A stretch of 64,000 nucleotides of DNA from Folioceros fuciformis (lineage: Eukaryota). The notes beneath the pieces were generated by a model that did no database searches, had not been told where the DNA came from, and saw only the letters and a list, made by a program, of their open reading frames with translations. Location: assembly GCA_049999805.1 (NCBI GenBank), contig JBNGIO010005486.1, positions 1 through 64,000 of the forward strand. Reading direction: 5' to 3'. Positions 13,378-54,419 of this stretch are shown in pieces. Made by a program: the position numbers and the translations under genes. The first letter of the stretch is position 1, and each line of letters begins with the position of its first letter.

Positions 13378-16300
13378 CTATTCTTTCATCACCTTTTGTA
13401 AGTACTCCGTTCTCCAAAACACGAGTTGCCTTTTGGGATCAATACCCTCCAAAGTAAGAGGCTTAGCAAGGTAGCCATAGAGAATGAGCTTAGCTTGATT
13501 CTTGTCATCGATTCTCACAAGATCGATGGTCTCCTTCAAACCTATCTCGGTTTTTGGAAGACTTTTCCAAAGCGGGCGAACTCTAATCCAATCGACAAAA
13601 CCTCGCCCATGAGAAGAGAACTGTTTGTGAAGGTTATTGGCATCCTGCCAGCCCTCCTTGGTGGGTGGAAATCTCAACAACACCCTACCTCTGTGCCCGT
13701 GTTTGCCCATGATCGGAATAAATGATCCATTGCCTTTGTATCCAAGATCTGAAAAGAGAAACATACAACACAAAACATCAGAAGAACTAAATCTTCATTG
13801 GATTTCATGTTTCCACTAAGTGTATGCATCTGTACGAATGTTGACAGAAAAGCCAACCTTGAAGCATCAGACTTAGTTCGAAGTCGTTCAAGCCAATCCA
13901 ACGCTTCTTAACATGTCGAATTCGAGCATTTTCGATTATCACCATAGGAGGCCATACTATCTTCCTGTGATGATTTTTTCTAATGCCAGTTTTTGTTATC
14001 AAAGCTGCCATTACATGAAGCCACACAATCAATAGGAAACAAAAGGCTTCATAATAATAATATTTTATATTTTTTAAAACAAAATAATGGTTTCGAAAAT
14101 AAGCTCACACTCACCAGCCATATCAATAGATTTTCCTACATGGTCTAATCCCAGAACATCACATATTGCTCTAGAGTACCCACGATGTTCAGGAAGTTTA
14201 GGTGCCTTGACTGCATGTCCATGTGCTACAAGAGATGGAATATCTTCAAAGTTCTCTTTCCTGGAGTAGACATGGAACTATATGCTTAGAATGGTCAAGC
14301 AAAGGAATCGACATAAGATGTTGTTGAAAAGAATTGGACATCACACATACCTGTTTAAACTTTCACAAACATGACAAAACAAATTTGTGTTGGTCTCCAA
14401 ATCTCTTCTAGCAGAGGTGTTGTTTGTTAGAAAATTTGTGAACTCCGTAACAGCCTTTTCTTCCCTTTCGAACATGTCTTCATCATAGTCATTGGCCTCC
14501 TCTATGATCAACTTGGGTGTTTCGGGTGATTTTGGCTTGCTTTGTTCCACTGAAGATTTGTCTCTGTCTTTATATCTGTCTTGGGCATTGATTGATTTTG
14601 CAGGTGATTCAACTTGCTCTATTGACGATCCGTACAAAAAGTTAGGTTTCCATATCAAGTGCGAGTTTTTGCTCTTCAAATTCTTGTCGAAATCTACATT
14701 GTTGTGGTCAATTCTTTCGTTGTTGCTCCGACATGCTCTTTCTTGAGAAACAAGTTCAGTAGTATTAGTTACAGTTGTTGCATTGCTGCAAAGTGTGTTA
14801 TGTTGATCCACTTCTTGCAAAGTGGCATAATTTTGTTCTACTCTTTTGAATTCAAGTGAAGTATGAGATTGTTCATCAGATATGACATTATGGCAAGAAA
14901 CTTTGGCTTTTTTTTCGTAGTTTCTTTCCCTTTTATGACTTGAAGCATTTCTTGTATCACCATTGCTAGAGCAAACAACTCCATTTTCATTTGAAAGAGG
15001 CTTGAGATTGCTGTTGGCCTCCTCTTCCCATGTCTCTCTTAATCTCTTTTTTTTTTTTCTTTGTAGCTCGCAATTGAGCCCATCATGTTCATGATAATCA
15101 AAACCTTGAAGTAAGATAGTCCCATCGAATTTCTCTGTCATGCTTGACATGTTGGTGATACCCTTCTCAGGGTCCTGAGTTGTGCTTGTTATAAACCTGT
15201 TTTGCTTCTCATAATTTTTATCATAATTTTCTTTACATTTCTTCTGACCACATCTTAGCCAATTGGTGCACAAATCATGAGGACTATGTCGGTGTTGTTG
15301 GTCATTGACATGCTTTTCTACATTCTTCACACTAACATGCTCTAAGGGAGAGTAATCTGGGGATTCTACACTTGGATTTGGAATCTCAATAGAAAGTCTT
15401 TTGTACTTGTTCTTTTGTTCTAAAGTACGAGTAAACGAAGATAGATTTGGGGAATTTTCATGTTGTTGCAATCCAATGCTTTGGCTCGCATTATGTGAAG
15501 TAGGAGGTTGGACATGACAATCTCCCATGTTTTTAAAATATGTATTTTGAATAAAAGATTTGTTTTCACAATTTTGAAAATCCTTCATGGACCACAAACC
15601 TGGTTGAGGCAAGAGTTCTCCTGGACTTGGAGCTTTCAAAGTGTTTGCTTCACTAAAGAGCCAATTGTTTCCTTGACCAACTACCAAGTTACCTAAATCT
15701 GTGTTAGACTCGCCATTAGCTAATGACTTCCAAGCACCAAATGTGTTGGTTGGGTTGCTACAAAACGCTCCTTGGTAGCCTTTGTTAACTGCATCAACCT
15801 CAACAAAGTACATGGGGTGGTTATACTTTCTTTCCTCAAAATCTACAGCACTAGGATTTGAGCAAAAGTGAGGATCAACATCACTAGATTGAAAAACATT
15901 GTCAATGGACTTAGCTCTTAAGTTTTGAGGAACAAGTATGTCAGACAAACTCGAAGTATTGCAATTTAGCCCATTCGCTTGGATGATTGAAGGGTAAGCA
16001 AATGCATCATATGTTGGTGCTTTCAGTAGGCCAGGCCTCTTACTCAACAAATCCTTGTTGGCATCTAGAAAACTGTCTTGAGGGGATCTACCCACCACAC
16101 CCAAACCCGAAGTAACTTGGTTGCCATGTTTGTAAGGAAGTGCATTGTTTGGAAAGATTGAACAAAGATTTAGACCTACACTTCTCGACCCAATGTCCAT
16201 ATCACTCTTTATCAATTCAGAGTATGCATCCACATTTGAAAATGAAGTTGAGCTATATCTATTATCTAGAGGAGTCACAGGTGTGGACTTGGGGTGGATA

Positions 16301-16731
16301 TAAGATGGTATGTTTGTATCTAACCCACTTGAGACGTAATTGAATCCATGTGATTTTGAAGTTGAAGCAAGCATAGGGTTGTGACTTACACCATTTTGAG
16401 GCACTGATAAAAGTTCAGTGCCCAAAAGAGAATCATAGTTTCCCTTCCTCATTTCATTGAGATTAGAAAAGGTGGGGTTGATGATAGCACATTGAGCGAA
16501 AGAATTCCTACAAGACATGTTTTGTGTGATTGTCTTTCCTAGTATGTTTCCAACATTGTTGCCATAAACTCCATCATATGATGTGCCATTCACAATTGGA
16601 AATTCTCTCGCCTCAGGTTTTGTCATTTCACTCACTTTGAAACCAATCTGCATGTGACCATTCACTTCAATAGAAAATGGAGAAAGCCCATAGGAAGAAA
16701 ACTGTGAGTCCATCATCACATTCCTGTTCAA
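13378..16731 (-). CDS. XS-domain (SGS3-like RNA-binding) protein with a putative zinc finger and a long Asn/Ser-rich N-terminus
   Basis: A 796-codon exon ends in FCHVCESLNR. Later exons encode SLVAHGH...EHRGYSRAICDVLG, IVWPPMVIIEN, GKHGHRGRVLLRFPPTKEGWQDANNLHKQF and ILYGYLA, which are XS hallmarks. The start codon is uncertain. Confidence 0.8.
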
Positions 16732-17461
16732 TCTTCTTGAAATTGTGCAACTAGTCTCCTGAAATCAAAAGCATATTGAGTTGCTCTCTATACATAATCC
16801 ATCATATCTTGTTGCACCATGTTTGATGAGAAGAAGCTCTTAGACCTACACATCTAATTAAAGGTGAAACTAGGAGCTCAAGCCAAGCATTTTGCTATTT
16901 CTTGTCACAAAGCTCAAGTAAGAATACAAGTGTGTGCCATTGTAAAGTGGATATTTCCATGTCGTTTTTTCCATGTTATTGCAATTATTTATTTATTTAC
17001 TTTATATTTTAATATAAAATAATCCTAGGTATCAATCGTGGCTGAACTTTGCCCGTTCTTACTCCTGTTTTCGTCTTCTTTGTTAACTACACTCTTTTCA
17101 ACACGTTGCACGTTGAGAGCTCCAGTTCCATCGGTCCTCGCATTCATAGCCTGTGGTACGATGGCTCGCAACTTTCGAGCAACTCAAGTCCTCTCAGTTC
17201 TTGAAAAGAATTGCCTCGAGGCCCCACCGACACAGGTAAAACAGATGCATTTGGCAGTGGGGCACGTGAGGTGGTCTTTAAGGATATCTGGATAGGGAAT
17301 ACCGCAGCTCATGGTGACTCTTCAAGTGCTTAATGGTGGTTATTTTTCGAGACTTGCCGTCATGGGACGCCCAAAGCTTCATGGGAGCAGTGGAAGTTGG
17401 CAAGAGACTTGGCCTCGAGAGGTTTCCAATCCTCCAGTTTCCAAGGTGGACAGACAAGGAT

Positions 17462-19671
17462 TCAGCTGGCAGACAATTCAGGAAGTTCGAGCGGCTTCCA
17501 GGCTGCCAGCAAGTGGTCGGGGAAATCGGGACTCACGAATTCCTGCACCACTTCCGCCTGCAGAATCTCCTTCATTCTGGAGGAGGTGATATACCGCGGC
17601 GTCTTGTACTGGTTGCCTCCTCCCACGGACACCGCGTACTGTAGAAGCTTACCGAATGTACCTTCTTGCACGATCCGGAGCTTCAAAGGGCCGATGGTCT
17701 TGGCCACCCTGCCGCGCATGTAAGGGTTGTTGAAAGACTGGTCCAGCAACGTACAGCAGCTTTGCAGGACTTGGTGCGACAAATTTGTGCTGCTCTTGAG
17801 CTCCCAGTAGATGACGTAGCTGCCGGGCCTGGACGTCATGTCGGTATGACTGGTGAAGTCGGACAGCTCCCGGCCCGCGGTCCTCAGTTGGAGGGCGGCC
17901 TTGCCGACAACCATCATCAGCTCCGCCTCGTCCGTCTTGTCCGTGTTCACACTGAGCACCACGTTCTTTCTACATACGAACTCCACCTTCGGAGTCTGGT
18001 TGTAGAACCCTACCACCTTCACGATATCCGACATCCGGTACCTGTACAAACCTGGAGAAACAGATTGCTGTCAGACTCTTCTTTCTCTCCAACTCCAGAA
18101 CAGCAGCAGAACAAGGTTGCATCCCAACCTCCATGGCTGCTGGTGCACACCAGTTCGTAGATCTGCCCAACCTTCACATCCGCTATCCCGACAGGCGGGC
18201 CCTCCGAGTAATCAGCAGTGGCAGCGAGATGCAAATTATCTCCCGCATCTTCGTCCAATTTGAAAAGAGGGATGAACTCCAGGTAAGCCACATCGGGCGC
18301 CAAGGTGAAGACGGCGTCTTCCGGCCTATTCCTAGGGTTCAAATTCGACCCCAGCCAGGCCTCCGATGCGCCATAGTCTCCAGAAACCTGCACACGGTTC
18401 ACTGTCACACTGATCTTACCTCACCACTCCTCATTCATGCTGCAAACAGGGTTTCAATCCAAGCATTCCTCACCAAGGGCAAGTCCGGGCCGAGGTATCT
18501 CTGCAACATAGGCACGTACGGCCGCATCGCCCCCGTCACGATCGCGACAACGAACTTGGCATTCGGCCACAATCGCTTCGCGATTCCCTCCCACTCCCCG
18601 CCGGCACACTCCTCCTCCACTCTGCTCGCGGCCGAGGGATCAGGTCCACTCAGAAGCTTCTCCACAGCCGCACGAATCACCGGGTCCCGTACGCGCTCCC
18701 GGCTCACCTCCCCGGTCCTGAGATCCTCCGCCAGCTCCCGCCACGCCTGCTCCAGACACCGGAACCCTTCTACCAGCCCGTAGGCAAACAGGGAGTTCAG
18801 GCTCTGTATCTCCTGATGCAGCTTCAACCCGCACAGCAGGTGGCAGTACATGGACTCCCGGATGTCGTATCCGAGAATGACCTCGTTCGGGCTGACAGTG
18901 ACAGGCCGGTTGCCCACTTTGTCCTTCACCCTGTTCTTGAACTCGTCACTGCGAAAGAAGTGAGTGCTGTCTGTTGCGGCCACCAGCCCACCCTTGGTTG
19001 GAAACATCTTCCCGGCGTAGCTGAAGGACACACATTTGGAACCGGGCTCCAGGGGATACACCCTGCAACGCGAGGTCAGCATCAATCCATCCCCCGCCCG
19101 GGAACAATGGAATGAGTGAATTGGTTCCAGCTGAGCTCAGCTTACTCACATGTTTCTGAGAAGATCATTCCGCTGGTCCATCTTGAAGGCCGCCTCATCC
19201 TTCCCCTTCGCCGTCACAGGGATCATCCTGGACTTGCCCCCGCTCGTCCCCGAGCTGCATCACAGCAATCCGGCAAACCAGTGTTCACCGAATTCGCAGA
19301 CAACTTCCTTGGATTCGGCCGCTGCACTTGCAATGCCGTACCCATAGCCATTCGGTAGCTTACCTCAGCGTGAGCCTGGCCACCGGCTCCGTAGTCAGGA
19401 TAGGTACTTTGTCTCCGTCTATCATGCGTTGGATGTCGGCCTCGATGTCGGCATATGTGATGACAGGGACACAGGCCCTGAAAGAGGCCTCGTCTGTCCT
19501 GCCATTGAGCTGCGTGCGCCGTAGGTACTCGGCGTCGGCATTCTCCTTGAGGATCTTCTCCAGGAGCTGCCTCTGCACCTCCACAGCGTGCTTCGTGACG
19601 TGCTGCAGCGCTTCCCACACTGCCTTGTCCCCGGGCCTGAGCAACACCGGATCCTCCTCAGGGCCTGCCAT
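17462..19671 (-). CDS. GH3: GH3 acyl acid amido synthetase, paralog 1 (5 exons)
   Basis: MAGPEEDPVLLRPGDKAVW; P-loop SSGTSGGKSR; DYGASEAW; LYRYRMSD; LSVNTDKTDEAEL; QYKTPR. Four GT-AG introns and no disruption seen. Confidence 0.95.
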
Positions 19672-19852
19672 TTCCTCCTCTCTCGAGCTAATCGAGAGCT
19701 GCAAACTCCTCCTTCTACAACACACAGCAGACGGATGTTCCCGACAGCAGCCAGACGGCTAATCGTTCGTCCCACGTGTCCTGCGTCGCTGCGAGACAGC
19801 CATCTCCAATAGCACGCTGTTTCTGTTTAATGGACCAAGAATGAGACAAGAA

Positions 19853-22157
19853 TCAGACGGTGTCCGGTAGAGGCTTCCAGGAGGCCAGCAGCGCGGCAGG
19901 AAAATCAGGGCTCTGAAACTCCTGCACCAGCTCTGCGTCCAAGATGGCCAGCACCTTCGGCGAAGCTACGCAGCGGGGGGTTTTGTACTGGCTAGCCCCG
20001 CCTCCAACGCCCAGAGCAAAATCCGCCAACTTCCTGAACGATCCTTCCTTCAGGACTCGGAGCTTCAAGGGGCCAATGGTGTTGGCAACCCGGCCGCGCA
20101 TGTACGGGTTGTTGAAGGACTGGTCCAACATAGTGCAGCACTTCTGCAGCACATCCTGCCTCAAATTTGAGGTGCTCTTGAGCTCCCAGTAGATGACGTA
20201 GTTGCCGGGCCTGGATGTAATGTCGGCGTGGCTGGTGAAGTCCACCAGCTCGTTGTCCGCCTCGGTGAGAATGCGGGCTGCTTTGGCCACCACAGCCATG
20301 AGCTCGGCCTCGTCCGTCTTGTCCGTGTTAACGCTCAGCACCACGTTCTTCCTGCACACAAAAGAGACCTTGGGGGCTTGGTGGTAGAAGCCCACCACCT
20401 TCACCACGTCGGACATGCGGTATCTGTAAAGGCCTGGAAGGATGGGACACTGTCAGAGCTGCCGGGCCGACATAGGTTTGGCGGGGGAAGCTTGAGAGGA
20501 GTGGGATCACGGGGTTATTACCAGCAAAGTTGGTGAAGACAAGCTCGTAGATTTGCCCAACCTTCACATCAGCAATGCCCACAGGCGGCCCTTCCGAGTA
20601 GACTGCAGTGGAGGCAACATGGACTTCCTCTCCTTCACCTAGACGTTCGTCCAGCCTGTACAGGGGAACGAACTCCAAATACACCACGTCGGGAACCAAT
20701 GTGAAAACGCTGTCTTCTGGAGGATTCTTAGGGTTGAGGTTGGAGCCAACCCAACCCTCACTGGCACCATAGTCTCCCGAGATCTGCACGACGCCATATC
20801 CCAATTTCACCACCTTTGCTCCACAATGCATTGCTCTTTGACATCCGAACATGCAGCAAACAACGTTGGCACGGCTAGAAAGAAACAGACTTGACGAGAG
20901 CGTGACTGACCAGTGGCAGGTCGGGGCCCAAGTATCTCTGCAGCACGTGCACATAAGGAGCCATGGCTCCAGTCAGGATGCACTTGACAAACTTGGCCCT
21001 GGGCCACAGCCTGTGCACCACGCCATCCCAGGCCCCCTTCGCACACTCCTCCTCCACCCTAGCAGCAGCCTCCACATCCGGCCCGCCCAGAAGCTTCTCC
21101 ACAGCCGCACGCATGTCCTGATCCACCACACGCTTGGCACTCACCGTGCCCGTCCTCAGGTCATCCACCAGCTCCCGCCAGGCCTGCTCCAGGCACCGGA
21201 ATCCCTCAGCCAGCCCGTAGGCGAAGATGGAGTCCATGCTCTGCACCTCCTGGTACCGCTTCAGCCCACACAGAAGGTGGCAGTACATGGACTCCGGGAT
21301 GTTGTAGCCCAGAACCACCTCGTCCGGGCTGACGTAGGTGGGCGAATTCTGCACCACATTCCTGTCCCTGTTCTTGAACATTTCGCTCCGGAAGGCAATG
21401 GAGGTCCCGGCCCCGGCCTGGAGACCTCCTTTGGTGATGAAGACCTTCCCTGCGTAGCTGAAGGACAAGCTCTTGGAGCCCGGCTCCAGAGGGAAAACCC
21501 TGCCATGGATCCAAGCTCCACCCACCCCAAGGTCACCAACACCAAACGACCAAATTCAACTCCCGACGATGCTCCAACTCAAGCTACAAGTCCTCAGATT
21601 GAAGAAGGTTTTTCTGTGCATTGTTTTGTGTTTGTTTGGTTCTTAAATTTCTTTCACTCTCACTTACATGTTCCTGGCCACATCAAACCGCTTGATCATG
21701 ATGTAAGGTAAGATTCTGGTCCTGGCTGTGGCAGGCAGCATCTTCGCCTTTCCCCCGCTGGTTCCAGAGCTGCACGCAGTGCAAAAGACAGAGGTCGTCA
21801 GCACCCAACCAGAGCTGCCCCACACGATCCACCATCGCCGCACATTGCTGCCTCTCACCTCAGAGTCAAGCTGAGCACGGGGTCCGCGCACAGGATGGGC
21901 GACTTGTCTCCGTCCGCAATTCGTTGGACATCGGCCTCGATGTCCTCAAACGTGATGAGCGGCACGCAGGCCCGGAAGGAGGCTTCGTCGCTCCTGCCAT
22001 TCAGCTGCCTGCGCTGCCTCAGGTACTCCGTGTTCCCGTTCTTCTCTACGATCTCCTTCAGCAACTCCTTCTGCACCTCCACGGCATTCTGCAGCTTCTG
22101 CTGCAAGTCCTCCCACACCTCCTTGTCCCCCGGCCTCACCAGCAACTCCGTCGCCAT
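19853..22157 (-). CDS. GH3: GH3 acyl acid amido synthetase, paralog 2 (5 exons)
   Basis: MATELLVRPGDKEVW; SSGTSGGKAK; DYGASEGW; LYRYRMSD; QYKTPRC. Same four intron positions as paralog 1. An alternative in-frame ATG lies at 22226. Confidence 0.95.
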
Positions 22158-22412
22158 CGCCGCTAATCCGCGACCCAAACTCGAACTCGGAAGAAGTCTT
22201 TCAAGCCTTCCAAGGGTCTTATCCATTGCACTTGCTTGGCTTGGATTATTTTACAGGTAGAGCATCAGCTGCTAGTCTGGGACAAACCCCTACTTAGTCA
22301 CAAGCCTGGGAGACAGTGCAGAGAGAGGGTTCCAAGCAAACACGGTACGCCACCAACCGGTCCTGAAATACTGCTAGCCAGGATTTCACAAACAGAAAGA
22401 CTGGCGCAACCA

Positions 22413-24072
22413 TCATCGAATTCCTCGCCAGTAGCGTAACAATTCCGGGTCCTTGTGCAGCCGATCCATTTGATGGGGAAAGAGGCGGAGAGAAGCATCG
22501 ACGCTTCCAGGCCCGAGCATGCCCGGGTTGAGGACCAACACGAAGGGGAAGTTCTGGGTCACCTGGCGGACGCACGCAGGTTTGCCCCACCCGAAATCGC
22601 ACCCCAAACAAGGGAGCTTGTTGGATCCCATGGCAGCGGCCCCGTTTCTCGACACAATCGCATTGCTGAAGGCGTCGTGCTGCTCAGACTGCTGGATGAA
22701 GTCTGCAATCACCTCGCTTCTGATGCCCTTGGAGATGGCCTGGGGCGGACGGACGTCAGTCCCGTTCTCAAATCCATGAGCAAAGGAGGGTAAAATCATC
22801 TCACCTGGTGGATGACGGTGGCGGCGAAGGACACGGGGCTGGTGAGGAGCTCCTGGGCCGTCGCTGTAGCCACCACGTTGTAAGCCGCGTTGCCGAAGTA
22901 GTTCTGTGGGAGGAAGGGGAGACGGTCCCGGCATCCGGCTGGGATGATCATCGGCGCCTCTTCGCCTCCGGCAACGTCGCGAGCCCGGGTGATGCATCTC
23001 CAAAACAGGGCACACACGACCTGGTGAAGTGAGGAGGAGAATGTTAGACAAAGTACATGGCAGCAAGGACTATAAAGGGAACGGAGCGCCGGCCGTATGT
23101 GCTCACCTCGTAGGTAGTGAACCAGCTGGGAGAGTCATGGCCCATTTGGGAGACTCGGAGCACGTCGGCCTTCAGCTGGCTCAGTCCTTCAGGGGAGAAG
23201 CAAAAGTACGTCTCCTGGGTGGGCGGAATGAGCTTGAGCCGCGACTTGGGGACCATGCCTCCTCCATTCTTCACCTCCGTGGTGGACAAAAACTTGAAGC
23301 GCTCGGCGATGTCAGACTTCCCTGGTAGGATTGCATCGCACAGCGTCTTCAGGCCGGGAGAAGTGGAAGGATGCAATAGGGTCCGGTCGTGGAGAGGGGG
23401 ACATAGCTGTGGCTCGTTTCTGGCAATCTCTGCCCAGCATTTGACAAAGGTCCAAAACCCCGTGCCGTCTGCAACAACATGGTTGAAAGCCAGGCCCAGG
23501 GCGATTCCTCCGCATTTGAATCTTGTCACCTGCAGGATGGCGAACTTGAGCGTGCGTCACAGCTACACGTGGATATCCATTCTTCATGCCTACATTGTAC
23601 AAATTTGGATACAAGGCTTTGAGAACAATACCTGGATTGAAAGGAGGGGAAGCTTGTGATAGGTCGTGTGGTCACCCTCTGCATCCGGGGCGGCGACGAG
23701 ACTGTCAAACAGGTCATTATTAGTTTGGAACTCTGGTAGCAGGGTATCCAGGGACGAGTCTGCCTCTGCTGTCACGAATGGGATGCCTGCATCATCACAT
23801 ATCAGGGATGGCCTTGCTCCGTTTTCGGAGTCGTCTATCTCTGTCAGACGTCCTGCAAACGGATAGAAATGCACCAAGGCATCCCGCAAGCTGGACTTCA
23901 ACTTCTCAACCAAGCTAGGAAACGGGGGAGTCTCTCCTTGGGCCGGATAGAACAGCAGCCGGCGCACAAACGGAAAGTGCCACATGCGTAAGTCGAAGCA
24001 GGATAGGAAGAGGCTTTGAGAGGATGTCGGACTGGTGGGACTGATCGTCCAGGACTGCTGCATGGTCACCAT
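22413..24072 (-). CDS. BAHD acyl-CoA acyltransferase (4 exons)
   Basis: LFLSCFD; LKSSLRDALVHFYPFAGRL; conserved Q-intron 17 residues before the catalytic HVVAD (HxxxD, 23467-23481); NYFGNA; DFGWG (22584-22598). Confidence 0.95.
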
Positions 24073-24084
24073 TTCCGCTCAAAT

Positions 24085-24577
24085 CAACCCTGGGATAGAA
24101 GCCTCCTGCATCCGAAGTCCCGAGGCACAGAATGTCAGAGAGAAGTGAGACCGTATCGTACAGGAAACAGCCAAAGGTCGAACCTCTCCGAAGTGCTCAA
24201 CACCTCACAATGCTGCGCCCCATGTGAAATAGACGGGCTCCCTGGAGCCTATCTGTCACTTCCAAGAATAGCACGAAGACGCATAACGATTGACGAGGTT
24301 CATTGTATTCAAACTTGTCGTGGGAAGTGTAGCTCAACCCTGGATAGGAGCCCTCCTGCATCGGAAGTCCAGAGACACAGAATGGGAGAAGTGAGCACGT
24401 GTCTCCAGGCCAGCATCGCAAGGTGGAATCTCGTACAAGAGCTCAGCACTTAACAGTTCGACGACCCCTGTGAAATGGACGGCCTCCCTGCCTGACCAAC
24501 CCATCCGTCACTTCCAAGAATAGTAAGGTAAGGAATGACAATTGACGTGGTTACAAAATATGCATTTAAACTTGTCA
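24085..24577. repeat. Diverged ~250-bp tandem duplication filling the BAHD upstream region
   Basis: Copy A (24085-24320) and copy B (24335-24577) share CAACCCTGG..CCTCCTGCATC.GAAGTCC.GAG.CACAGAATG, TGTGAAAT.GACGG, GTCACTTCCAAGAATAG, ATTGACG and AAACTTGTC in the same order. Confidence 0.85.
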
Positions 24578-24655
24578 GAATGATGCTCCCACTCTAGTGG
24601 ACGCCCGGAGTTGTGGGCTACCTCCCACGGTCCAGCCTACATGACTGATTTTCCC

Positions 24656-26923
24656 TTACGCGTTGTGCGATGCTGAATTGCCCACCGCGAGCAACTGTTC
24701 TGGAAAATCAGGACTCTGAAGCTCCTCTAATATTCGGCCATTCAGAATATTGAGGAGCTTTGCCGACGTCACACAACGTGGGGTCTTGTAACTACCGTCT
24801 CCCCCTCCAAGGCCTTTCACATACTCGAGAATCTGCTCGAACGTTCCTCCCTGCACCACGCGGAGCTTCAATGGCCCATGCGTTTTGGCAACCCTTCCCA
24901 CCCTGTAGAAGCTGCCGAAGGACTGATCCATGACTGTGCAGCATGTCTGAAGAGTATCAACGGGCAGATTTTCACTCTTGTTGAGCTCCCAGTAGATTAC
25001 GTAGCAACCTGGTCGAGAAGTCGTATCTGCATGGCTGGTGAAATCCACAACCTCCAGGTGTTCAGCTTCCAGGTGTTTGGCTGCTTTGGAAACCACCGCC
25101 ATCAGCTCCGCTTCATCTGTCTTGTCCGTGTTCACACTCAACAACACATTCTTCCGATACATAAACTTCACAACCGGAGACTGGTGATAGAAGCCTACAA
25201 CCTTCAACACATCTCCCAAGCGGTACCTATACAGACCTGGTCAGGACAAAGGTGAAGGTTTTAGATAAAAAAACGGGGCTGGGATAGTCTCTAGCATCGC
25301 AGGCTACGAGGACAGTAGACGCAGCCTTACCAGTGAAAGTAGTGAAAACAGGCTCGTAGTCCTGTCCCACTTGGAGGTCCCCAAATCCCACGGGCTCACC
25401 CTCCGCATGACTATCGGTAGAAGCCACATGAATCTCATCTTCAACTCCAACATAACTCTCCGTCCTCTTATGGAGTGGGATGAACTCCAAGTAAACCACA
25501 TCTGATGCCAAAGTGAACACAGTGTCGTCTGGAGCATTGCGAGGGTTGAAGTTTGAGCCAATCCAACCCTCCGAGGCACCATAATGTGCTGAAACCTGCA
25601 CGAAGCACAATTCTCATCCTCCTGCTCATAGTCTGAGAAAGAGTGGATGCAACAGGTGCGAGCACATCGAGGCAAACCTAACTCAACTATTGTCCGTAGA
25701 GAGCTCACCAGCGGCAATGCAGGGCCCGCATATCTCTGCACCACAGGCACGTACGGCTTCATGGAACCTGTGATGATCGCTTGAATGTACGTCGCGCTTG
25801 GCCATAACCGTTTAGCAATTCCTTGCCAGTCTCCACATCCACATTCCTTCTCCACCCGAGCCGCAGCATCGGGATCCGGGCCTTCCAAAAGCTTCTCCAC
25901 TGCAACTCTCACTTCTTCTTCCGAGACTCGCTCCACGCTCACCGTCCCCGTCCTCAGATCGTCAGCGAGTTCCTGCCACACTTGTTCCAGGAAGCGAAAT
26001 GCTTCCGAGACGCGATACACGAATATGGAAACAATGGCGTCAACTTTCCGGTAGAGCTTCAGTCCGCACAGAAGATGGCAATACATGGCTTCCCGCGTTC
26101 TCCCAGCGCGAATCACCTCAATCGGGCTGATCGCAGTCGGAAATGGGAACACTACGTTTTTTGGGCGATTCTCGTAAGCTGCGCTCCGGTAAAAGACCGC
26201 CGCAGCGGATCCGAGAGGGAGGCCGCCTTTTGTGGTGGATGCCTTGGATGCGTAGTTAAATGCCAAGGTTTTCGCGCCGGGATTGAGTGGGAACGCCCTG
26301 CCACAAGCGCTCACGGAACATCAACCAGCCATCTCCACAGGATTCCTCCGACGTCCCGTCACAAGGACCTGAGCAAGATTCAAACAAGGAGTAAGATTCA
26401 TACATGTTCCGAAACAAGTCGCATCTCCTGAACATCTTGAAAGGAACACCAGCGACCTCTGTCGTCTGAGGTATCATCTTCAGCTTCCCCCCTGAAGTTC
26501 CAGAGCTGCAGGCACACACACGGGATGAGAGCGCCGAACTTCACTTCACACTCACATTCCACCTAGGGGAGGAAGAAGGAGCCACGCCAAATCCATGACC
26601 TCCGACATTAATCACCTAAGGTACATCGCAGAGATGCGGTCGGCGCACAGAATCGGAGACGTGTCTCCATCTGCGATCCGCTGCAGGTATTCCTCATAGT
26701 CCGCATGAGTTGTGAGGGGTATGCAGGCCTTGAAAGATTGTGCATCGGTCCTGCCATCCAGCCCGTGCCGCTGCAGGTATTCCGTGCCAGCATTCCTCTC
26801 CAAAATGCTCCGAAGAAGCTTCCTCTGCACCTCCACAGCATTCCGCGTGGTATACTGCACCTCATCCCAGACTTCCTTGTCTCCAGGCCGCAACTGGATC
26901 GGCTCGGACTCCACGGTGTCCAT
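24656..26923 (-). CDS. GH3: GH3 acyl acid amido synthetase, paralog 3 (5 exons)
   Basis: MDTVESEPIQLRPGDKEVW; SSGTSGGKLK; HYGASEGW; canonical LYRYRLGD; SYKTPRC. Same four intron positions. Confidence 0.95.
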
Positions 26924-28263
26924 TGCGTCTCAAATCTTCGAGAGTGCGCGGCAGTGATCGATGCGAAAACGAACGGGAGAGGAGCGGGTTTGGACAGAAT
27001 CCGTCAACCTGAATTAGCAGCGCGTGCGACAAGACTTGAACCATCGAAAACAGCAACATCCAGCGCATAACTCAAGACTAGTCAATGGCAACATCCTGAG
27101 CCGACCCCACCAAGCCATCGGCTGCGCTGCTGTTTTCACTCATGCGTTTAAGCCCGATGGACATGTCCGCTCTCGTTCTCCTTCGGTCAAATCCAGAAAA
27201 CTCGTTTGCAGTTTGCTTTGGACGAACGTCATCAAGGTAGAAAACCTGCACCATCCCGCACACTCCTGGTTCCCGGGGCCTAATCTGAAAGCTCCACAGA
27301 GCGCCGCGCCGCGCCGCGCCGCCCCACGTTTTTCAGGCCCTGATAACAAAAACTACACCGGACTTTTGCTTCTGTGCGGTGTGATATTCCATTCCCGATC
27401 CAAGTACATAGACGACTTTTCTCATGGATCATTGAGGCTGAGACAGACGTACCTATTCTAAGGAGACAGGTGGTAGTCGGAAGAGGATAGCTTGCAATTA
27501 CTAAGGTACGTTTACAGCATTATGCAATGTGTTTGCTGATCGAAGTGAACTTAAAGTGAGCTTTATGAGTGCAATGGAATAGGACCAGGAACTGCCGTTG
27601 GAAGAGCCTTTGTGAGCTGCAGCTTCAGCCTAGATAGATAGAAGGATATGTGCCGCAAGCTTGGATGCAGAAGTTGAATCCGCGGGTTTTGTCTTGACGG
27701 AGGCTTGGGTCTTCCCTTTGCTGTTCGCCGAACTCATCCAAGTTTGTGCGAGAGTCTGCTCACAATCGCCGCACTTGAAGGACGTTGTGGAAGGAATGAA
27801 CCGTGATACCTAGCGAAGGTGAAGAAGAGTCTCTCTGGCACCTTCCTCTTTGTTGGAAGTGAAGAGTATCTTCCAAGGACGAACGGAGTGTGTGTGATCA
27901 TCGGGTGTTGGTATAGTAAGGGAATCAAGTTTGCTGCGACGCTCCCGATTCCCATCTTGCTAGAGCAGCTCCGCTTTCGTTGCAAGGCAGTGCTGTGAAC
28001 ACGGAAGCGATAACGGCAAAGCTGAGCAAAGTAAGCTCAACAAAGTGATGAAGCGGAAACGAACCGAAAAGGAGCAACGTGTGTCTCAACAAACGCGGAA
28101 TTTGGCGGTGTGAAAGGCATAAAGTGGATTTGTTTGGTGTGGGGAGTGTGTGGATGTGCTGAAAGAGAGAAGATTCCAGGTTTACGTGGCTCAGTGTCGA
28201 TGGAGGAGGAATTCGAAGCAACAATTTGGCTCGCTAAGGTGCGGTAGCAGCGCAGAGCTGGCG

Positions 28264-29490
28264 ATGGATTCCGATGGGAGCTTCCCGGGAGGCCTCGACA
28301 CGCTGGACCGGCTGCTGGAGGCGCATCTGCCACCGGAAGCTTTGGCGCAGGTGCGGAGAGTGATGCTGGGACTGAACGGGACGGAGCCGGTTGGAAGGCT
28401 GAAGCTCCCGGAGGCGGTCCGGATGTTGGCCAGTTTCGGGAAGTTTGACGTACAGGGGTACCAGTTCTCGGCGGCCAGGGAGGAGCTGCGGTCGCCGCGG
28501 CTGGTGCGGATCGGGCTCATCCAGAACGCAGTGGTGCTGCCTACCACGGCGCCGAAGGAGGAGCAGCGGATGGCGCTCATGGAGCGGGTGGGAAAGCTGG
28601 TGCACATGGCGGGGGAGGCGGGGGTGAACGTGCTGTGTTTGCAGGAGGCGTGGACAATGCCGTTTGCCTTTTGCACCAGGGAGAAGAGCTGGTGCGAGTT
28701 CGCGGAGAACGTGCACGGGGAGAGCACGGTCTACCTGCAGGACTTGGCGAAGCGGTATCGCATGGTGGTGGTGAGCCCGATTTTGGAGAGGGACGAGGTG
28801 CACGGCGGGGTGCTGTGGAATACCGCTGTGGTTATTGGCAGCAAGGGGAACGTCATAGGGAAGCACCGAAAGAATCATATTCCCAGGGTGGGGGATTTCA
28901 ATGAGAGTACATATTACATGGAGGGGGACACAGGGCATCCAGTGTTCGAGACGGAGTATGGTAAGATTGCTGTCAATATCTGCTACGGCAGACATCATAC
29001 TCTTAACTGGCAGGCGTTTGGGTTAAATGGGGCGGAGATTGTGTTTAATCCGTCTGCTACTGTTGGGGAGCTGAGTGAGCCCATGTGGGGCATTGAGGCA
29101 AGGAATGCTGCTATTGCTAACAGCTACTTTGTGGGTGCTATCAATCGTGTGGGGACTGAGCATTTCCCCAGACCCTTTACTTCCGGGGATGGTAAGCCTG
29201 CTCATACTGATTTTGGGCATTTCTATGGCTCCAGCTATGTGGCTGCCCCGGATGCTTCTTGCACTCCTAGCCTTTCTCGTTGCAAGGATGGGCTCATGGT
29301 TGCGCTGGTAGATCTCAACTTGTGCCAGCAAGTGAAGGACAAGTGGGGTTTTAGAATGACGGCTCGATATGATATGTACGCCCAGCTCTTTAACAGGTAC
29401 TTGCAGCACAACTTCAAGCCGCAGATTGTCAGGGATCCGGCTTTGGACGAGCATGAGCAGAATGGATATCCCAGTGTCAAACCTGTCTGA
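28264..29490 (+). CDS. PYD3: Beta-ureidopropionase (beta-alanine synthase, nitrilase superfamily), intronless
   Basis: Single ORF with the catalytic triad motifs [22 protein letters not shown] and NICYGRHH, plus [15 protein letters not shown]. Confidence 0.95.
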
Positions 29491-39758: not shown

Positions 39759-40158
39759 NNNNNNNNNNNNNNNNNNNNNNNNNNNNNNNNNNNNNNNNNN
39801 NNNNNNNNNNNNNNNNNNNNNNNNNNNNNNNNNNNNNNNNNNNNNNNNNNNNNNNNNNNNNNNNNNNNNNNNNNNNNNNNNNNNNNNNNNNNNNNNNNNN
39901 NNNNNNNNNNNNNNNNNNNNNNNNNNNNNNNNNNNNNNNNNNNNNNNNNNNNNNNNNNNNNNNNNNNNNNNNNNNNNNNNNNNNNNNNNNNNNNNNNNNN
40001 NNNNNNNNNNNNNNNNNNNNNNNNNNNNNNNNNNNNNNNNNNNNNNNNNNNNNNNNNNNNNNNNNNNNNNNNNNNNNNNNNNNNNNNNNNNNNNNNNNNN
40101 NNNNNNNNNNNNNNNNNNNNNNNNNNNNNNNNNNNNNNNNNNNNNNNNNNNNNNNNNN
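39759..40158. other. Assembly gap (400 N)
   Basis: Run of N. It probably hides the start of the PXA-PX gene. Confidence 1.
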
Positions 40159-43100
40159 TCCAGGAACGGGGGGAATGCTGGGCAGGGGGGAAAAGAGGGG
40201 CGGTGGCGGCGGGCGGTGGACTCTCCTGTTGTGGAGGCTGCGATTGAGGAGTTCACTGAGTGTGTTGTGAATGAATGGGTGTTGCAGCTCTGGTTTTCGG
40301 CTTTGTCTCCGGATCTGGAGGTTCCGGAGGAGATCAGGCTGCTGCTGAATGGGGTGATTGGGGAGGTGGCGCAGAGGGCGAGGAAGGTGAACCTGGTTAG
40401 CCTGCTGACGAGGGATGTGGTAGATCTCGTGAAGGGGCAGCTGAAGCTCTTCAGGAAAACGCAGTCCACTGTTGGTGCGGATGTGCTGGCCAGGCTCTCG
40501 TCAGAGAAAAGAGATGAGAGGTTGAAGCAGGTTTTAGTGGAGTCCCGGCAGTTGCATCCGGCTATGGTTTCGGTGGATGCGGAGTATGAGGTGCTGCGGA
40601 GGCTGATGGGGGAGGTTGTCGATCTTGTGTTGCGACCGCAGGATAAGCAGAACAAGCTAGTGCGGGGCCTTGCACGGGAGCTTCTAGGCTGTGCGGTGAT
40701 GCGGCCTATTGTAAATTTGGCCAACCCTGGGCTTATCAATCAGGTTATTGAAGGCCGTGTGCTGGCAGCAAGGAACAAGGTTCGTATGGAGCAGCCTTTG
40801 AAGAGCACGGCCGTTCCTGTGAAAGTGAACAAGCTGGCGCGGACTGTCTCTGATGACTTGTCTATGGAGATGTCGACCATGGCGGTTTCGGGGGAGATCC
40901 CCCCATCTGGTGGTGTGCACGGCCCTGCGGAGGCCGAGCCTGCCGTTGCGGGGGTCGTAGTAGGAACTTCTGCCCAAGCTATTTGGTCTTATGGCGCTAC
41001 CAAAAGACAGTCCAGTGCCTCCAGAGGCTGGTCGCGAACTGTTGATGTGGCGAGTAGCAAGAAGACCCAAGTCCTTGCTCCGGAACACTTGGATAACATG
41101 TGGACGAAAGGGCGGAATTACAAAAAGAGGGAGGTGAAATCTCTGTCACCTAAGGTAGCTCAGCTGGTGCCAATCGCAGCAGTAGGCAAGACCCAAGAGT
41201 TAGGACCTCCGTCAAGTGCTTGTGAGCAGGTCCGGGAGGAGTATGAGGAAGAGATTGCGTCTGCTGTTAGTACACGGAGCAGAAAAGATCCTTCGAATGT
41301 AGTGCACAGCAAGCAGAACAGCCAGAGGACATCAGATCACAAGAAAAATGTGCAGTCAAAAAATGGTCCTGTAGTGAAACCGGCGCAAGCCGCTGTCGGG
41401 AAAATGTTGCTTGACGACTACGAAGAGGAAGACGTGCCTGGAATCGGGTTTGCTGGTGCTAAATGTAGCAAAGCGACGGCGGCCAACAGCGCTGTGGGCT
41501 CCCATGTTAACGTCGAGCCCCTGAAGGTGTCTGAAGCTAAAAAGCACCCTCTCAGCTTTTTTGATGATAGGCCACTCTCTGCTGAAAATTCTTCGCAATT
41601 TCAGAGTGTGAGAGCTCCACAGTCATGGTTGCAACACAGAAGAACCAAGAGTGGCTCAGGGTTGGACTCCTGGCAACGGGGACTTGATGATCATCAGGAT
41701 GATCAAGGTAATTCCTCCAGAAGCTTAGATGCGAGTGTGGTGAGTCCACGTATGGAAGGACAGGGCCTTAAGCCTGTAAGTGTCAAGGCACCTGAAGAAG
41801 CAGGATATGGATCTGGCAGCCTGTTAGCATCTTCCCCTGACAACTTTTTCTGCAAAGTCGTGGGTTATAATATTGTCAAGGATGTTCAAGCAAGGCCCTT
41901 TGTAGTATACACGATCTCAGTCAGAGACTCTCTGAATCGAATCTGGAAAGTGCAAAGGAGATTCAGCAATTTTGAGAAGTTACACCGACGTTTGAAGGAG
42001 ATACCTTTCTATGATCTCAATCTTCCACCCAAGAGATACCTGTCTTCTAACATGGAGGATGCTTTTATACTTCAAAGATGCCAACTTCTTGATGTGTACC
42101 TGCAGGAACTGTTGTCCCGTCCAAGTATATCTGAGCAGCATGAAGTGTGGGATTTTCTCAGCAAGAACTCGGTTAGTTATGGGTTCGATAGTGCAGAATC
42201 TATTATCAAGACTTTGGCCGGCAATGTCGACGATGCAGTCGATGATGTCTTCCGTCACATCCGGTGGGTGTCGGATGACTTTCAGGAAGCATTGAAGACG
42301 GCCGCTGGTATGAAGAAGCGTGTGAATGTTGGTTCAACGTCCTTGGTAGACTCCTCATTTCCTGCGTCAGATCTTCCACAGACACTTCTCTTGACAGAGG
42401 CTGCTTACGGTGAGAGGGGTCTAGCAGCTCATATGCTGGATGACGAGGATCTGGGGGATCTGGAGAACAGGCCCCCTCCGTTACAGTATGAAATTTATTC
42501 AGACAGCGAGTTGCCCTATAGATCCTTTGCACAACATCAAACTAGCAGGTATCAGGAGTACCGGGGAAGAAAAACGGAAAAGGCCTTGTCTGAAGGGCAC
42601 TCCCCAGTTGAATCATTAGGTGGGTCAGACACAATAGATGATGATCTTGGCATACCTCAGGAATGGGCGCCACCAAAACTGAGCGTTCCCCTTCTGAATC
42701 TAGTAGATGTTATTTTTCAGCTTGAAGCTCGTGGGTGGATCAGGCGGCAAGTGTTTTGGATGGCTAAGGAAGCACTGCAGCTAGTTATGGGAGACACCCT
42801 GGACGATTGGCTGCTCACCAAAATTCAGTGGCTACGGAAGGAGGAAGTGGTTGCCTCTGGCATCAGCTGGGTAAGAGGTATTTTGTGGCGGGATGGCCTC
42901 TTCATCACCAAACGCAATGGGGCAAACAACTCAGCACCGCGTGCAAACAGTGGGCCTGGTAGCCTGGGTCAGCCACAACCTTTAACATTCGAGCAGCAGA
43001 GGGAGGCAGCTCGGCGGAAAGAATTTGTGCGTGAAGTTTTGATTGACAATGCTCCCATAGCCCTGGTGAGCCTGATTGGCCGGAAGGAGTATCAGAGGTG

Positions 43101-43239
43101 TGCCAAAGACATCTTCTACTTTATCCAGTCACCACTGTTTGTGAAACAGCTAGGTTTTAGTCTTCTAGAGATTCTTATTCTTGCAGCCTTTCCTGAGCTC
43201 CACGATGTCGTTCTTGATGTCCGAAGCTCTGTACTGTGA
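40159..43239 (+). CDS. PXA + PX + Nexin_C domain sorting-nexin-like protein (5' end in gap, visible part intronless)
   Basis: PXA: WRRAVDSPVVEAAIEEF...VNLVSLLTRD...LHPA. Conserved LAPEHLDNMWTKGRNYKK. PX: FVVYTISV...WKVQRRFSNFEKLHRRLKEIPFYDLNLPPKR. C-terminal EWAPPKLSVPLLNLVDVIFQL...GWIRRQ and FPEL. Confidence 0.92.
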   Translation, partial: SRNGGNAGQGGKEGRWRRAVDSPVVEAAIEEFTECVVNEWVLQLWFSALSPDLEVPEEIRLLLNGVIGEVAQRARKVNLVSLLTRDVVDLVKGQLKLFRKTQSTVGADVLARLSSEKRDERLKQVLVESRQLHPAMVSVDAEYEVLRRLMGEVVDLVLRPQDKQNKLVRGLARELLGCAVMRPIVNLANPGLINQVIEGRVLAARNKVRMEQPLKSTAVPVKVNKLARTVSDDLSMEMSTMAVSGEIPPSGGVHGPAEAEPAVAGVVVGTSAQAIWSYGATKRQSSASRGWSRTVDVASSKKTQVLAPEHLDNMWTKGRNYKKREVKSLSPKVAQLVPIAAVGKTQELGPPSSACEQVREEYEEEIASAVSTRSRKDPSNVVHSKQNSQRTSDHKKNVQSKNGPVVKPAQAAVGKMLLDDYEEEDVPGIGFAGAKCSKATAANSAVGSHVNVEPLKVSEAKKHPLSFFDDRPLSAENSSQFQSVRAPQSWLQHRRTKSGSGLDSWQRGLDDHQDDQGNSSRSLDASVVSPRMEGQGLKPVSVKAPEEAGYGSGSLLASSPDNFFCKVVGYNIVKDVQARPFVVYTISVRDSLNRIWKVQRRFSNFEKLHRRLKEIPFYDLNLPPKRYLSSNMEDAFILQRCQLLDVYLQELLSRPSISEQHEVWDFLSKNSVSYGFDSAESIIKTLAGNVDDAVDDVFRHIRWVSDDFQEALKTAAGMKKRVNVGSTSLVDSSFPASDLPQTLLLTEAAYGERGLAAHMLDDEDLGDLENRPPPLQYEIYSDSELPYRSFAQHQTSRYQEYRGRKTEKALSEGHSPVESLGGSDTIDDDLGIPQEWAPPKLSVPLLNLVDVIFQLEARGWIRRQVFWMAKEALQLVMGDTLDDWLLTKIQWLRKEEVVASGISWVRGILWRDGLFITKRNGANNSAPRANSGPGSLGQPQPLTFEQQREAARRKEFVREVLIDNAPIALVSLIGRKEYQRCAKDIFYFIQSPLFVKQLGFSLLEILILAAFPELHDVVLDVRSSVL

Positions 43240-47938: not shown

Positions 47939-48038
47939 NNNNNNNNNNNNNNNNNNNNNNNNNNNNNNNNNNNNNNNNNNNNNNNNNNNNNNNNNNNNNN
48001 NNNNNNNNNNNNNNNNNNNNNNNNNNNNNNNNNNNNNN
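47939..48038. other. Assembly gap (100 N)
   Basis: Run of N in an AT-rich, repeat-like block. Confidence 1.
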
Positions 48039-48190: not shown

Positions 48191-49099
48191 TCATGTTTTT
48201 GTCATTCTTCTCAAAGTTTTTGCCAATCTTCTCAAAGAAAGCAAGGGATAAAATGCTTCAAGGATCTTCTTCTTAAAGCTCTGCCACTCCATCCCATCTA
48301 CACACAAGGTTGCCACCACATTGGACCACCATAGAAGAGTATCACCCACCAAGTGATAATGTATGAACTTCACATACATTTCCTTCTCCAAACCTCGGGC
48401 TTCAAAATACTTCTCCATGTCACCAAACCACTTTGTCATACTACTAGGATCAATGTTGACATTATATATGCACAATCCCCGAGGTGGGTGAGGCAACTCC
48501 ACAGAGTTATTAATCCAAAATACAAGACTAAATCTTACTTGAGGATCATGTCTTTGCCTCTTCATTCTCCACACACCAGGGTTGGAATAATAAGTCGAGA
48601 AGATCAAATAAGACGTCTCCACAACAAGCAGCTCAAACGAGCCATCTTGGAGTTTGAACATACTCCAGTAGGGCTGAACCTCATAAACATAGATGGGTGG
48701 AATGCTCAACCACTCTTTAGTATTCGGATTGAACACCACAAACTCAGTAACAGCCCAGTTACGCTCCCTAAGCCATATGCATATCCAGTCATCCACCACC
48801 AGATACTTGCGAAATTTCGAATTCAAACCATCCCTAAACTTGGAAGGCAGGTAACTGATATCCATGGGCACAAAGGTCCTCATCTTCTCTCCATATCTTC
48901 CTACTTTCCTGTGTGTTCGAAACAATGCAGTGCCATCAACATTAAACCTCCATTCATATGGCCCAAATGCAACAATATAGTCACGAGGACTGGTAAATTG
49001 CTGGCTTGAGCTCGTCATTTCTAAACCTAAACCTACATCAATATATAGTATGAAAATAGGGTTAGAAACATAGTACTTCCCAAAAGAATGATGCAACAT
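48191..49099 (-). mobile_element. LTR-retrotransposon Gag remnant (Ty3/gypsy-like) in frame with an F-box-associated-like segment
   Basis: The C-terminal WFGDMEKYFEARGLEKEMYVKFIHYHLVGDTLLWWSN...MEWQSFKKKILEAFYP fits the retrotransposon Gag pattern. The upstream FVVFNPNTKEWLSIPPI resembles F-box-associated domains. AT-rich and next to a gap. Confidence 0.6.
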
Positions 49100-49763
49100 G
49101 AAAAAATCACTCTAAGTTTAAATTACATAATAGTAAAAAACAACAAACAAACATTGTAACATAATACTAATGGCAAACTAACATAATCTCTTACTACCAT
49201 ACTAACCTCCTGCACATAAACAAACACAAAGATATATTTCTATGAATATATAGAAATAAAGCCCCAACATCAAAATTTGGTCACTCGATTGAACATAATT
49301 ATGACCAGCGAGATCAAGACCTACTACATACATATATACCATGTTTCCTCGATTACGCGAAGGAACCATTCGAGAGGGGGGATAAAAATAATGTTGTGAA
49401 TTTATGCTTGAAAATTAATCATAATCTCACAACTAGTTGGTCTGAGAACTATTTTTGTGGAGGTTATTTATTAAGATGTATGTCTTGGTTTATTTTTCCA
49501 TCGCCATTTCAATGTATTTATTGGTTTTTTTTTTTCCTTCGCCATTTCATTTCAATGATAGAGTTTCTAACGTTTGTTTTTGTAAGATTGTTTTGTTAAC
49601 TTACTAACGTATTACATATATTTTGTAGTCTACTAGCTATACTTTGTAGTAGAGTGTCATCTAATGATTAGATTTCTGGAATTCTATTTACTCGTGTGAC
49701 ATCGATGGGAGGCTCGACTCAAGTTGGCTTCGTTTCTTGTAAGACTCTTCTCTAAGATTCCTC

Positions 49764-51389: not shown

Positions 51390-54419
<3,030 letters not shown>

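Follow-up and report, generated by a model that had tools for sequence, protein, structure and literature searches.

We analyzed a 64,000-nt stretch of the Folioceros fuciformis genome (assembly GCA_049999805.1, contig JBNGIO010005486.1; hereafter the window) and found four enzyme genes packed head to tail on its minus strand at positions 17462-26923. In transcriptional order, these are GH3c, a BAHD acyltransferase (hereafter BAHD), GH3b, and GH3a, and the distances from each stop codon to the next ATG are 583 nt (GH3c to BAHD), 255 nt (BAHD to GH3b), and 181 nt (GH3b to GH3a). A preliminary description, made from the sequence, had proposed three intact GH3s and one intact BAHD on one strand within 9.5 kb, with the BAHD nested in the GH3 array. 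The Pfam matches, gene models, and RNA splicing described below agree with this, and the order GH3c-BAHD-GH3b-GH3a places the BAHD inside the array. The ends given for the interval were exact, position 17462 belonging to the GH3a stop codon and position 26923 to the GH3c ATG.

All 10 minus-strand open reading frame (ORF) pieces that were tested had a Pfam match, either to the N-terminal, middle, or C-terminal GH3 domains or to the BAHD Transferase domain, with E-values from 1e-9 to 1e-49 across pieces and 6e-5 for one C-terminal piece of the BAHD. A tblastn search with three full-length GH3 references placed GH3 genes at three loci of the window and no others, with five collinear blocks per locus. 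Exon models were built from in-frame GT-AG junctions that agreed among the paralogues. The resulting ORFs are free of stop codons and are divided into five exons in each GH3 and four in the BAHD; the 15 introns of the coding sequences (CDS) are all of the GT-AG type and 65-168 nt in length. GH3b has a second in-frame ATG at position 22226, 69 nt upstream of the modelled one, whose use would add 23 residues and shorten the spacer from the BAHD stop codon to 186 nt. The structure and the integrity of the four genes are direct observations.

Three public sequencing runs contain the stretch, none of them recorded as RNA; four runs were aligned to positions 17000-27500, with RNA coming from one sample only (run X3, annotated as RNA only by guess). 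In the contigs of this run, 13 of the 15 modelled CDS introns were found at their predicted positions among the joints listed, and the weak GTTGGG donor of GH3a intron 4 was used. None of those splice joints occurred in the DNA run X1 over the same region; run X3 therefore represents spliced RNA, and the gene models are confirmed. The domains, the intact models, and the splicing of the RNA together establish that the four genes are no chance ORFs. The remaining two runs (X5 and X6) come from other organisms and gave matches of only 49 and 34 nt. All four genes are transcribed, and transcription and splicing are both observed, in one sample.

A single spliced RNA contig of 6095 nt runs from position 24457 to position 17201 and contains the complete ORFs of BAHD, GH3b, and GH3a with both spacers retained. 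The BAHD 5' untranslated region (UTR), three ORFs, both spacers, and a 3'UTR of 261 nt account for its coordinates exactly. The start of the BAHD RNA at 24457 was worked out from contig coordinates and agrees with the depth of 48.2 in the bin 24371-24721. GH3c lies on a separate RNA contig of 2196 nt, from 24473 to ~27091, leaving a gap of 15 nt to the BAHD contig. Within positions 17000-27500, run X3 gave no RNA cover below 17201, above ~27091, or inside introns, and since introns and flanks are without cover, the cover of the spacers reflects RNA and not carry-over of DNA. An assembled contig over two genes is no proof of a single transcript molecule, and contig depth is unfit for ranking the genes. 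RNAs of the three genes BAHD, GH3b, and GH3a either overlap or continue from one gene into the next, and the contig shows no more than this; their contiguity in one RNA contig is compatible with shared regulation.

Table 1. Features of the GH3-BAHD array and the evidence for each
Feature	Position	Strand	Structure	Basis
GH3a	17462..19671	-	Exons 19671-19364, 19254-19150, 19062-18474, 18387-18129, 18051-17462 (including stop); 616 aa	Pfam GH3, GH3_M, GH3_C; 4/4 introns are GT-AG joints in RNA; SSGTSGGK, YGASE, YRMSD, KTPR
GH3a 3'UTR	17201..17461	-	261 nt	6095-nt RNA contig stops at 17201; depth of bin 17000-17350
GH3b/GH3a spacer	19672..19852	-	181 nt	Unbroken in RNA piece 19364-20432
GH3b	19853..22157	-	Exons 22157-21859, 21769-21668, 21499-20911, 20783-20522, 20433-19853; 610 aa	Pfam (three pieces); 4/4 introns in RNA
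BAHD/GH3b spacer	22158..22412	-	255 nt	Unbroken in RNA piece 21859-22738
BAHD acyltransferase	22413..24072	-	Coding exons 24072-23632, 23529-23107, 23020-22805, 22739-22413; 468 aa	Pfam Transferase (3 pieces); HVVAD at residue 164; DFGWG at residue 408; 3/3 CDS introns in RNA
BAHD 5'UTR	24073..24457	-	78-nt intron at ~24105-24182	RNA joint 24104->24183
GH3c 3'UTR	24473..24655	-	183 nt	RNA piece 24473-25234 stops at 24473
GH3c	24656..26923	-	Exons 26923-26616, 26505-26404, 26297-25709, 25595-25331, 25236-24656; 614 aa	Pfam on C-terminal exon; tblastn; PDB match of exon 3; 2/4 introns among RNA joints listed
Diverged direct repeat	24084..24552	.	~250 bp, across BAHD 5'UTR and GH3c 3'UTR	

The three GH3s are old duplicates. 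GH3a and GH3b share 69% amino acid identity, and GH3c is 57-58% identical to either. Fourfold degenerate sites differ at 0.56-0.66 among the copies and are saturated, and the array is therefore old. Pfam recognized the GH3 domains PF03321, PF23571, and PF23572 on three pieces each of GH3a and GH3b, as well as the C-terminal exon of GH3c. The motifs of nucleotide binding in GH3s are an SSGTS..K loop, Y-G/A-S-S/E, YR-x-GD, and a C-terminal Lys. In the array, SSGTSGGK, YGASE, and KTPR are found in all three copies, along with YRLGD in GH3c and YRMSD, a change of Gly to Ser, in GH3a and GH3b. Of 187 columns highly conserved among 31 JAR1-type proteins of seed plants, the copies retain 129-137, and many of their deviations are common to all three. 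We read them as a probable separate subfamily and not as decaying copies.

The affiliation of the GH3s was studied one exon at a time. A word-based search with GH3b exon 3 returned 522 proteins; among the 120 matches listed, identity was at most 46%, the best identity (~45%) being to seed-plant JAR1-type proteins, and every named entry was either JAR1-type or a generic GH3, names of group II or III being absent. Against solved structures, the same exon scored 133.7 bits with PBS3, 127.7 with JAR1, and 112-116 with group II proteins. For GH3b exon 5, group II came highest (165-173 bits), followed by JAR1 (164.6) and, in last place, PBS3 (142.8). GH3c exon 3 scored 128 bits with JAR1, 124.5 with GH3.6, and 116.6 with PBS3, which ranked sixth of ten distinct solved sequences and third of six proteins. 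As the ranking shifts with the exon, the GH3s are not placed in any angiosperm group, and their substrates are not readable from it. Fused GH3-BAHD forms did not appear among the homologues: none of the 151 proteins matching the BAHD contained GH3-like sequence, and the 120 GH3 matches listed carry GH3 Pfam domains only. Separately, a 6204-nt DNA contig of run X1 and one RNA contig of run X3 matched positions 20179-20362 only in two short conserved GH3 stretches, with 101 different letters between, which suggests at least one further expressed GH3 paralogue elsewhere in the same organism.

The BAHD is very divergent yet catalytically complete by motif. The Transferase domain PF02458 was recognized on three pieces (E = 1.5e-23, 7.3e-19, and 6.2e-5), the catalytic motifs HVVAD and DFGWG are both present, and the protein retains 40 of the 41 columns that are at least 85% conserved across 28 full-length homologues. 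Its best full-length homologue is 35% identical. When exon 1 was scanned exhaustively, 371 proteins matched at E <= 0.001 and only one of them exceeded 50% identity, a 195-aa fragment with 59% identity that ends at the same exon boundary; the word-based search with exon 2 found one protein among 200 candidates. Against single exons, solved BAHDs gave E-values of 1e-8 to 1e-10, with hydroxycinnamoyl, spermidine, and agmatine transferases ranking highest. EPS1 was the second-best solved match for the last exon, although a weak one (E = 0.007).

The diverged direct repeat between GH3c and BAHD consists of two families, 56 and 53 nt long, with 77-80% identity and spacings of 250 and 252. It covers the 5'UTR and promoter region of the BAHD, and the 78-nt 5'UTR intron lies inside the downstream copy. 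Across the window, the Rfam scan gave no matches and Tandem Repeats Finder no rows.

The genes examined around the array all look like housekeeping genes. Their Pfam matches include an AAA_11/AAA_12 helicase-type ATPase, SWEET, ERO1, an XS-domain protein, PPR, an FAD oxidoreductase, a PXA/PX sorting nexin, Integrator subunit 4, HEAT repeats, the exo/endonuclease-phosphatase family, an MFS transporter, and thioredoxin reductase/thioredoxin. Of the 30 neighbouring ORF pieces scanned, 17 had a Pfam match, and none of these was to a typical tailoring enzyme such as a P450, methyltransferase, or glycosyltransferase. The array is also flanked by a beta-ureidopropionase gene, complete and intronless, at 28264-29487 on the plus strand (408 aa in a single frame). 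Its product is 75% identical to a lycophyte protein, 72% to liverwort proteins, and 79% to one further database protein. In a tree of 24 beta-ureidopropionases, the window protein and this 79% match form a lineage of their own outside mosses, liverworts, lycophytes, ferns, and seed plants. Judged from the window sequence, the host would be an early-diverging streptophyte, of bryophyte grade or an alga, and plausibly a hornwort.

Directly downstream of GH3a, at 14341-16764 on the minus strand, lies, in an AT-rich region (GC content 0.37 in 14001-16000), an 807-aa open frame of low complexity, rich in Asn and Ser, for which no Pfam match was found. The sorting nexin at 40159-43239 (plus strand) exceeds 1000 aa in one frame, interrupted only by a 400-N gap at 39759-40158. 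The thioredoxin-reductase-type and thioredoxin domains at 52956-54273 (plus strand) occupy adjoining pieces on the same strand, like NTRC-type fusions. An AT-rich ORF at 48191-49111 (minus strand), beside the N run at 47939-48038, has a weak match to a retrotransposon gag domain (E = 2.5e-4, below the Pfam cut-off); no other piece seen in the window is transposon-like. Metagenomes were scanned as well. The BAHD gave 442 pattern matches and no relatives, and the GH3s gave 198 pattern matches and five GH3 loci, none with a BAHD; the closest locus is on a contig of only 2218 nt, and the scans are silent on synteny. One metagenome contig (L001, positions 306-2039) contains an unbroken and apparently intronless GH3 frame of ~600 aa that is 44-48% identical to the window GH3s, while three others (L002-L004, 28% GC) contain GH3-like frames at 28-32% identity.

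With confidence a little better than even, we favor an old, lineage-specific tandem array of three GH3s with an embedded, independently acting BAHD, and we find separate jobs for the GH3s and the BAHD somewhat likelier than a shared one. A GH3-BAHD-GH3 neighbourhood would have formed first, the divergent BAHD having come to lie within the GH3 array of a presumably compact and intron-poor genome, and one more local duplication of the downstream GH3 would have followed. With GH3c old and divergent and the other two copies more alike, such a neighbourhood and one duplication give the gene order without selection for clustering. The preliminary description had argued that tandem duplication alone does not explain the nesting of the BAHD; a single local duplication starting from GH3-BAHD-GH3 suffices. 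From family knowledge, each GH3 would use ATP to adenylate a carboxylic acid and would then acylate an amino acid with it at the amino group, and the BAHD, through its HXXXD histidine, would acylate a hydroxyl or amino acceptor with a coenzyme A (CoA) thioester as donor. The GH3s may conjugate hormone, oxylipin, or phenolic acids and the BAHD may form phenolic esters or amides; we infer these substrates, as well as the chemistry and the independence of the enzymes. The GH3s and the BAHD would then be neighbours on the chromosome and in transcription but would not depend on a common pathway.

One hornwort genome paper defined tandem arrays with 0, at most 1, at most 5, or at most 10 non-homologous spacer genes (PMC7027989), the bryophyte enzyme MpGH3A conjugates dinor-iso-12-oxo-phytodienoic acid (dn-iso-OPDA) to Glu, Gln, or His (PMC13364333), and Arabidopsis has read-through transcripts between same-strand neighbours at 271 reported loci (PMC9768141). 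As same-strand read-through is known in plants, the bridging contig needs no operon; and with interrupted tandem arrays being routine and the known roles of bryophyte GH3s hormonal, we take an independent BAHD as the default. A number of observations weigh against that default. The packing is extreme, with spacers of 181-583 nt and all four genes co-oriented; BAHD, GH3b, and GH3a are found on a single spliced contig whose bridging parts are RNA; and the duplicates, very old as they are, are all still intact beside the BAHD. Both families make acyl conjugates. Cooperating pairs of an adenylating enzyme and a BAHD are known, namely PBS3-EPS1 and LsAAE3-LsBOS (PMC9935904), and, for a hornwort host, it is relevant that phenolic acid-glutamate amides occur in Anthoceros agrestis, whose enzymes for them were described as still being sought (PMC7911284, PMC7419483).

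A true GH3-BAHD metabolic cluster is an alternative that we consider possible but doubtful. One or more of the GH3s would join an amino acid, for instance glutamate, to a phenolic acid or another carboxylic acid, the BAHD would acylate the GH3 conjugate or supply an acylated precursor, and linkage and co-regulation would have been kept for this purpose. Biosynthetic gene clusters of plants consist of linked, non-homologous, and co-regulated enzyme genes that serve one pathway and usually represent three or more enzyme classes. Part of the cluster proposed in the preliminary description stands, as non-homologous enzyme genes are physically linked, but GH3 and BAHD are the only two classes linked, one short of the usual minimum, and no tailoring enzymes are nearby among the 30 ORF pieces scanned. 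The location on one strand with short spacers, the splicing of all four genes in one RNA sample with three on one contig, and the predicted catalytic completeness of all enzymes are in favor of a shared pathway; against this, contigs can bridge on very few reads, which makes the shared contig weak evidence. One solved Arabidopsis GH3 bears the name "4-substituted benzoates-glutamate ligase," and the pairing of an adenylating enzyme with a BAHD has the precedents mentioned (PMC9935904). If the host is a hornwort, to which the GC content of 50.0% and the short introns, similar to Anthoceros angustus (PMC7027989), would correspond, the products might be related to the hydroxybenzoyl-, protocatechuoyl-, vanilloyl-, isoferuloyl-, and coumaroyl-glutamic acid amides of Anthoceros agrestis (PMC7911284). 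The transferases for these amides were still being sought, but the authors of that search expected CoA-dependent transferases, not GH3s (PMC7419483). The most specific form of the idea, a co-regulated four-gene module of a bryophyte-grade plant with BAHD-GH3b-GH3a as one read-through unit, making phenolic-acid N-acyl amino-acid conjugates and their acylated derivatives, for example hornwort-type glutamate amides, would be the first cluster built on GH3s; we think it unlikely.

Two other explanations concern the transcripts and the chemistry. BAHD, GH3b, and GH3a could form one polycistronic or read-through primary transcript that couples their expression, an operon-like arrangement that would be compatible with either an array or a cluster and that we regard as improbable. 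The 6095-nt contig with its three complete ORFs and both spacers is in its favor, and polycistronic nuclear transcripts are known in green algae (PMC7896298). The 181- and 255-nt spacers do not exceed the 3'UTRs measured for GH3c (183 nt) and GH3a (261 nt), so that a terminator and a promoter of their own would hardly fit, if at all. The same contig would, however, result from UTRs that overlap or from a small number of read-through reads; translation of ORFs downstream of one of 1.4-1.8 kb is unexpected in plants, and in Arabidopsis read-through transcripts are targets of nonsense-mediated decay (PMC9768141). Far less credible still is a salicylic acid route of the PBS3/EPS1 type, the analogy drawn in the preliminary description, in which isochorismoyl-glutamate, the product of a GH3, would be split by the BAHD as a lyase to free salicylate. 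The same two protein families are paired, PBS3 is the top solved match for GH3b exon 3, and EPS1 is the weak second-best match for the last BAHD exon. The analogy fails on the details: PBS3 is the worst of the solved GH3s for GH3b exon 5 and sixth of ten sequences for GH3c exon 3, and hence the GH3s are not consistently closest to it. The BAHD keeps the His of its HVVAD motif where AtEPS1 has Ser (Ser160) (PMC12225020), and with the catalytic His retained, it is not EPS1-like; moreover, EPS1 has been described as unique to Brassicaceae (10.1101/2021.08.21.457228).

The old tandem array with an independent BAHD thus remains our preferred reading, and under it there is nothing unusual about the locus, a tandem array with an interruption in a gene-dense genome. 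If the pathway is shared, the locus would add a new combination of enzymes to the metabolic gene clusters of plants, very few of which are known outside seed plants; it would tie GH3s, usually seen as hormone conjugators, to specialised metabolism and could name the enzymes behind the phenolic acid-amino acid amides of early land plants. Our literature searches found no paper on linked GH3 and BAHD genes and no described cluster of this composition, as the preliminary description had supposed, and for hornwort biosynthetic clusters the titles and abstract openings likewise suggest none that combines GH3 and BAHD. The composition is unreported in the literature searched, and the GH3-BAHD neighbourhood is a well-defined, testable cluster candidate. 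Independently of the pathway, nearly gapless co-oriented genes with RNA across the spacers make a handy case for studying the separation versus coupling of transcription units in compact streptophyte genomes.

Among known systems close to the array is that of PBS3 (GH3.12) and EPS1 in Arabidopsis, where one conjugate is handled by a GH3 together with a member of the BAHD family; it is the only direct GH3-BAHD partnership that our literature searches found. The PBS3 and EPS1 genes are unlinked in Arabidopsis. EPS1 lacks the catalytic His and acts as a lyase, whereas the window BAHD keeps it and the window GH3s are not specifically PBS3-like. In the LsAAE3-LsBOS metabolon of grass pea, the N-acyl amino acid beta-ODAP (beta-N-oxalyl-L-alpha,beta-diaminopropionic acid) is made jointly by an adenylate-forming enzyme and a BAHD; LsAAE3, however, is of the CoA ligase type and not a GH3, and we found no statement there of LsAAE3-LsBOS gene clustering (PMC9935904). 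The tomato cluster BGC2 with SlEPS1 likewise links non-homologous enzyme genes with a BAHD member (PMC12225020). In comparison, the window links two enzyme classes only and is known from sequence and RNA, while in the tomato paper GH3 occurs only in the reference list (PMC12225020).

Other comparisons concern single genes. The window GH3s resemble bryophyte GH3s such as MpGH3A, and tandem GH3 arrays, in their three-domain architecture, nucleotide-binding motifs, length of ~600 aa, and tandem expansion. They differ from known GH3s in being only ~45% identical (GH3b exon 3, among the matches listed) and in showing no consistent nearest angiosperm group among solved structures. For the BAHD, HCT-, SHT-, and ACT-type transferases are the best solved matches of exons 1 to 4, among them 6dd2, a "probable hydroxycinnamoyl transferase," in alignment with which the window protein has Ser in place of Trp just before DFGWG. 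Finally, the window as a whole (GC 50.0%) is similar in GC content, short introns, and its approximately five exons per gene to the genome of Anthoceros angustus, which has 49.6% GC, 4.8 exons per gene, and 9.8% of its genes in tandem clusters (PMC7027989).

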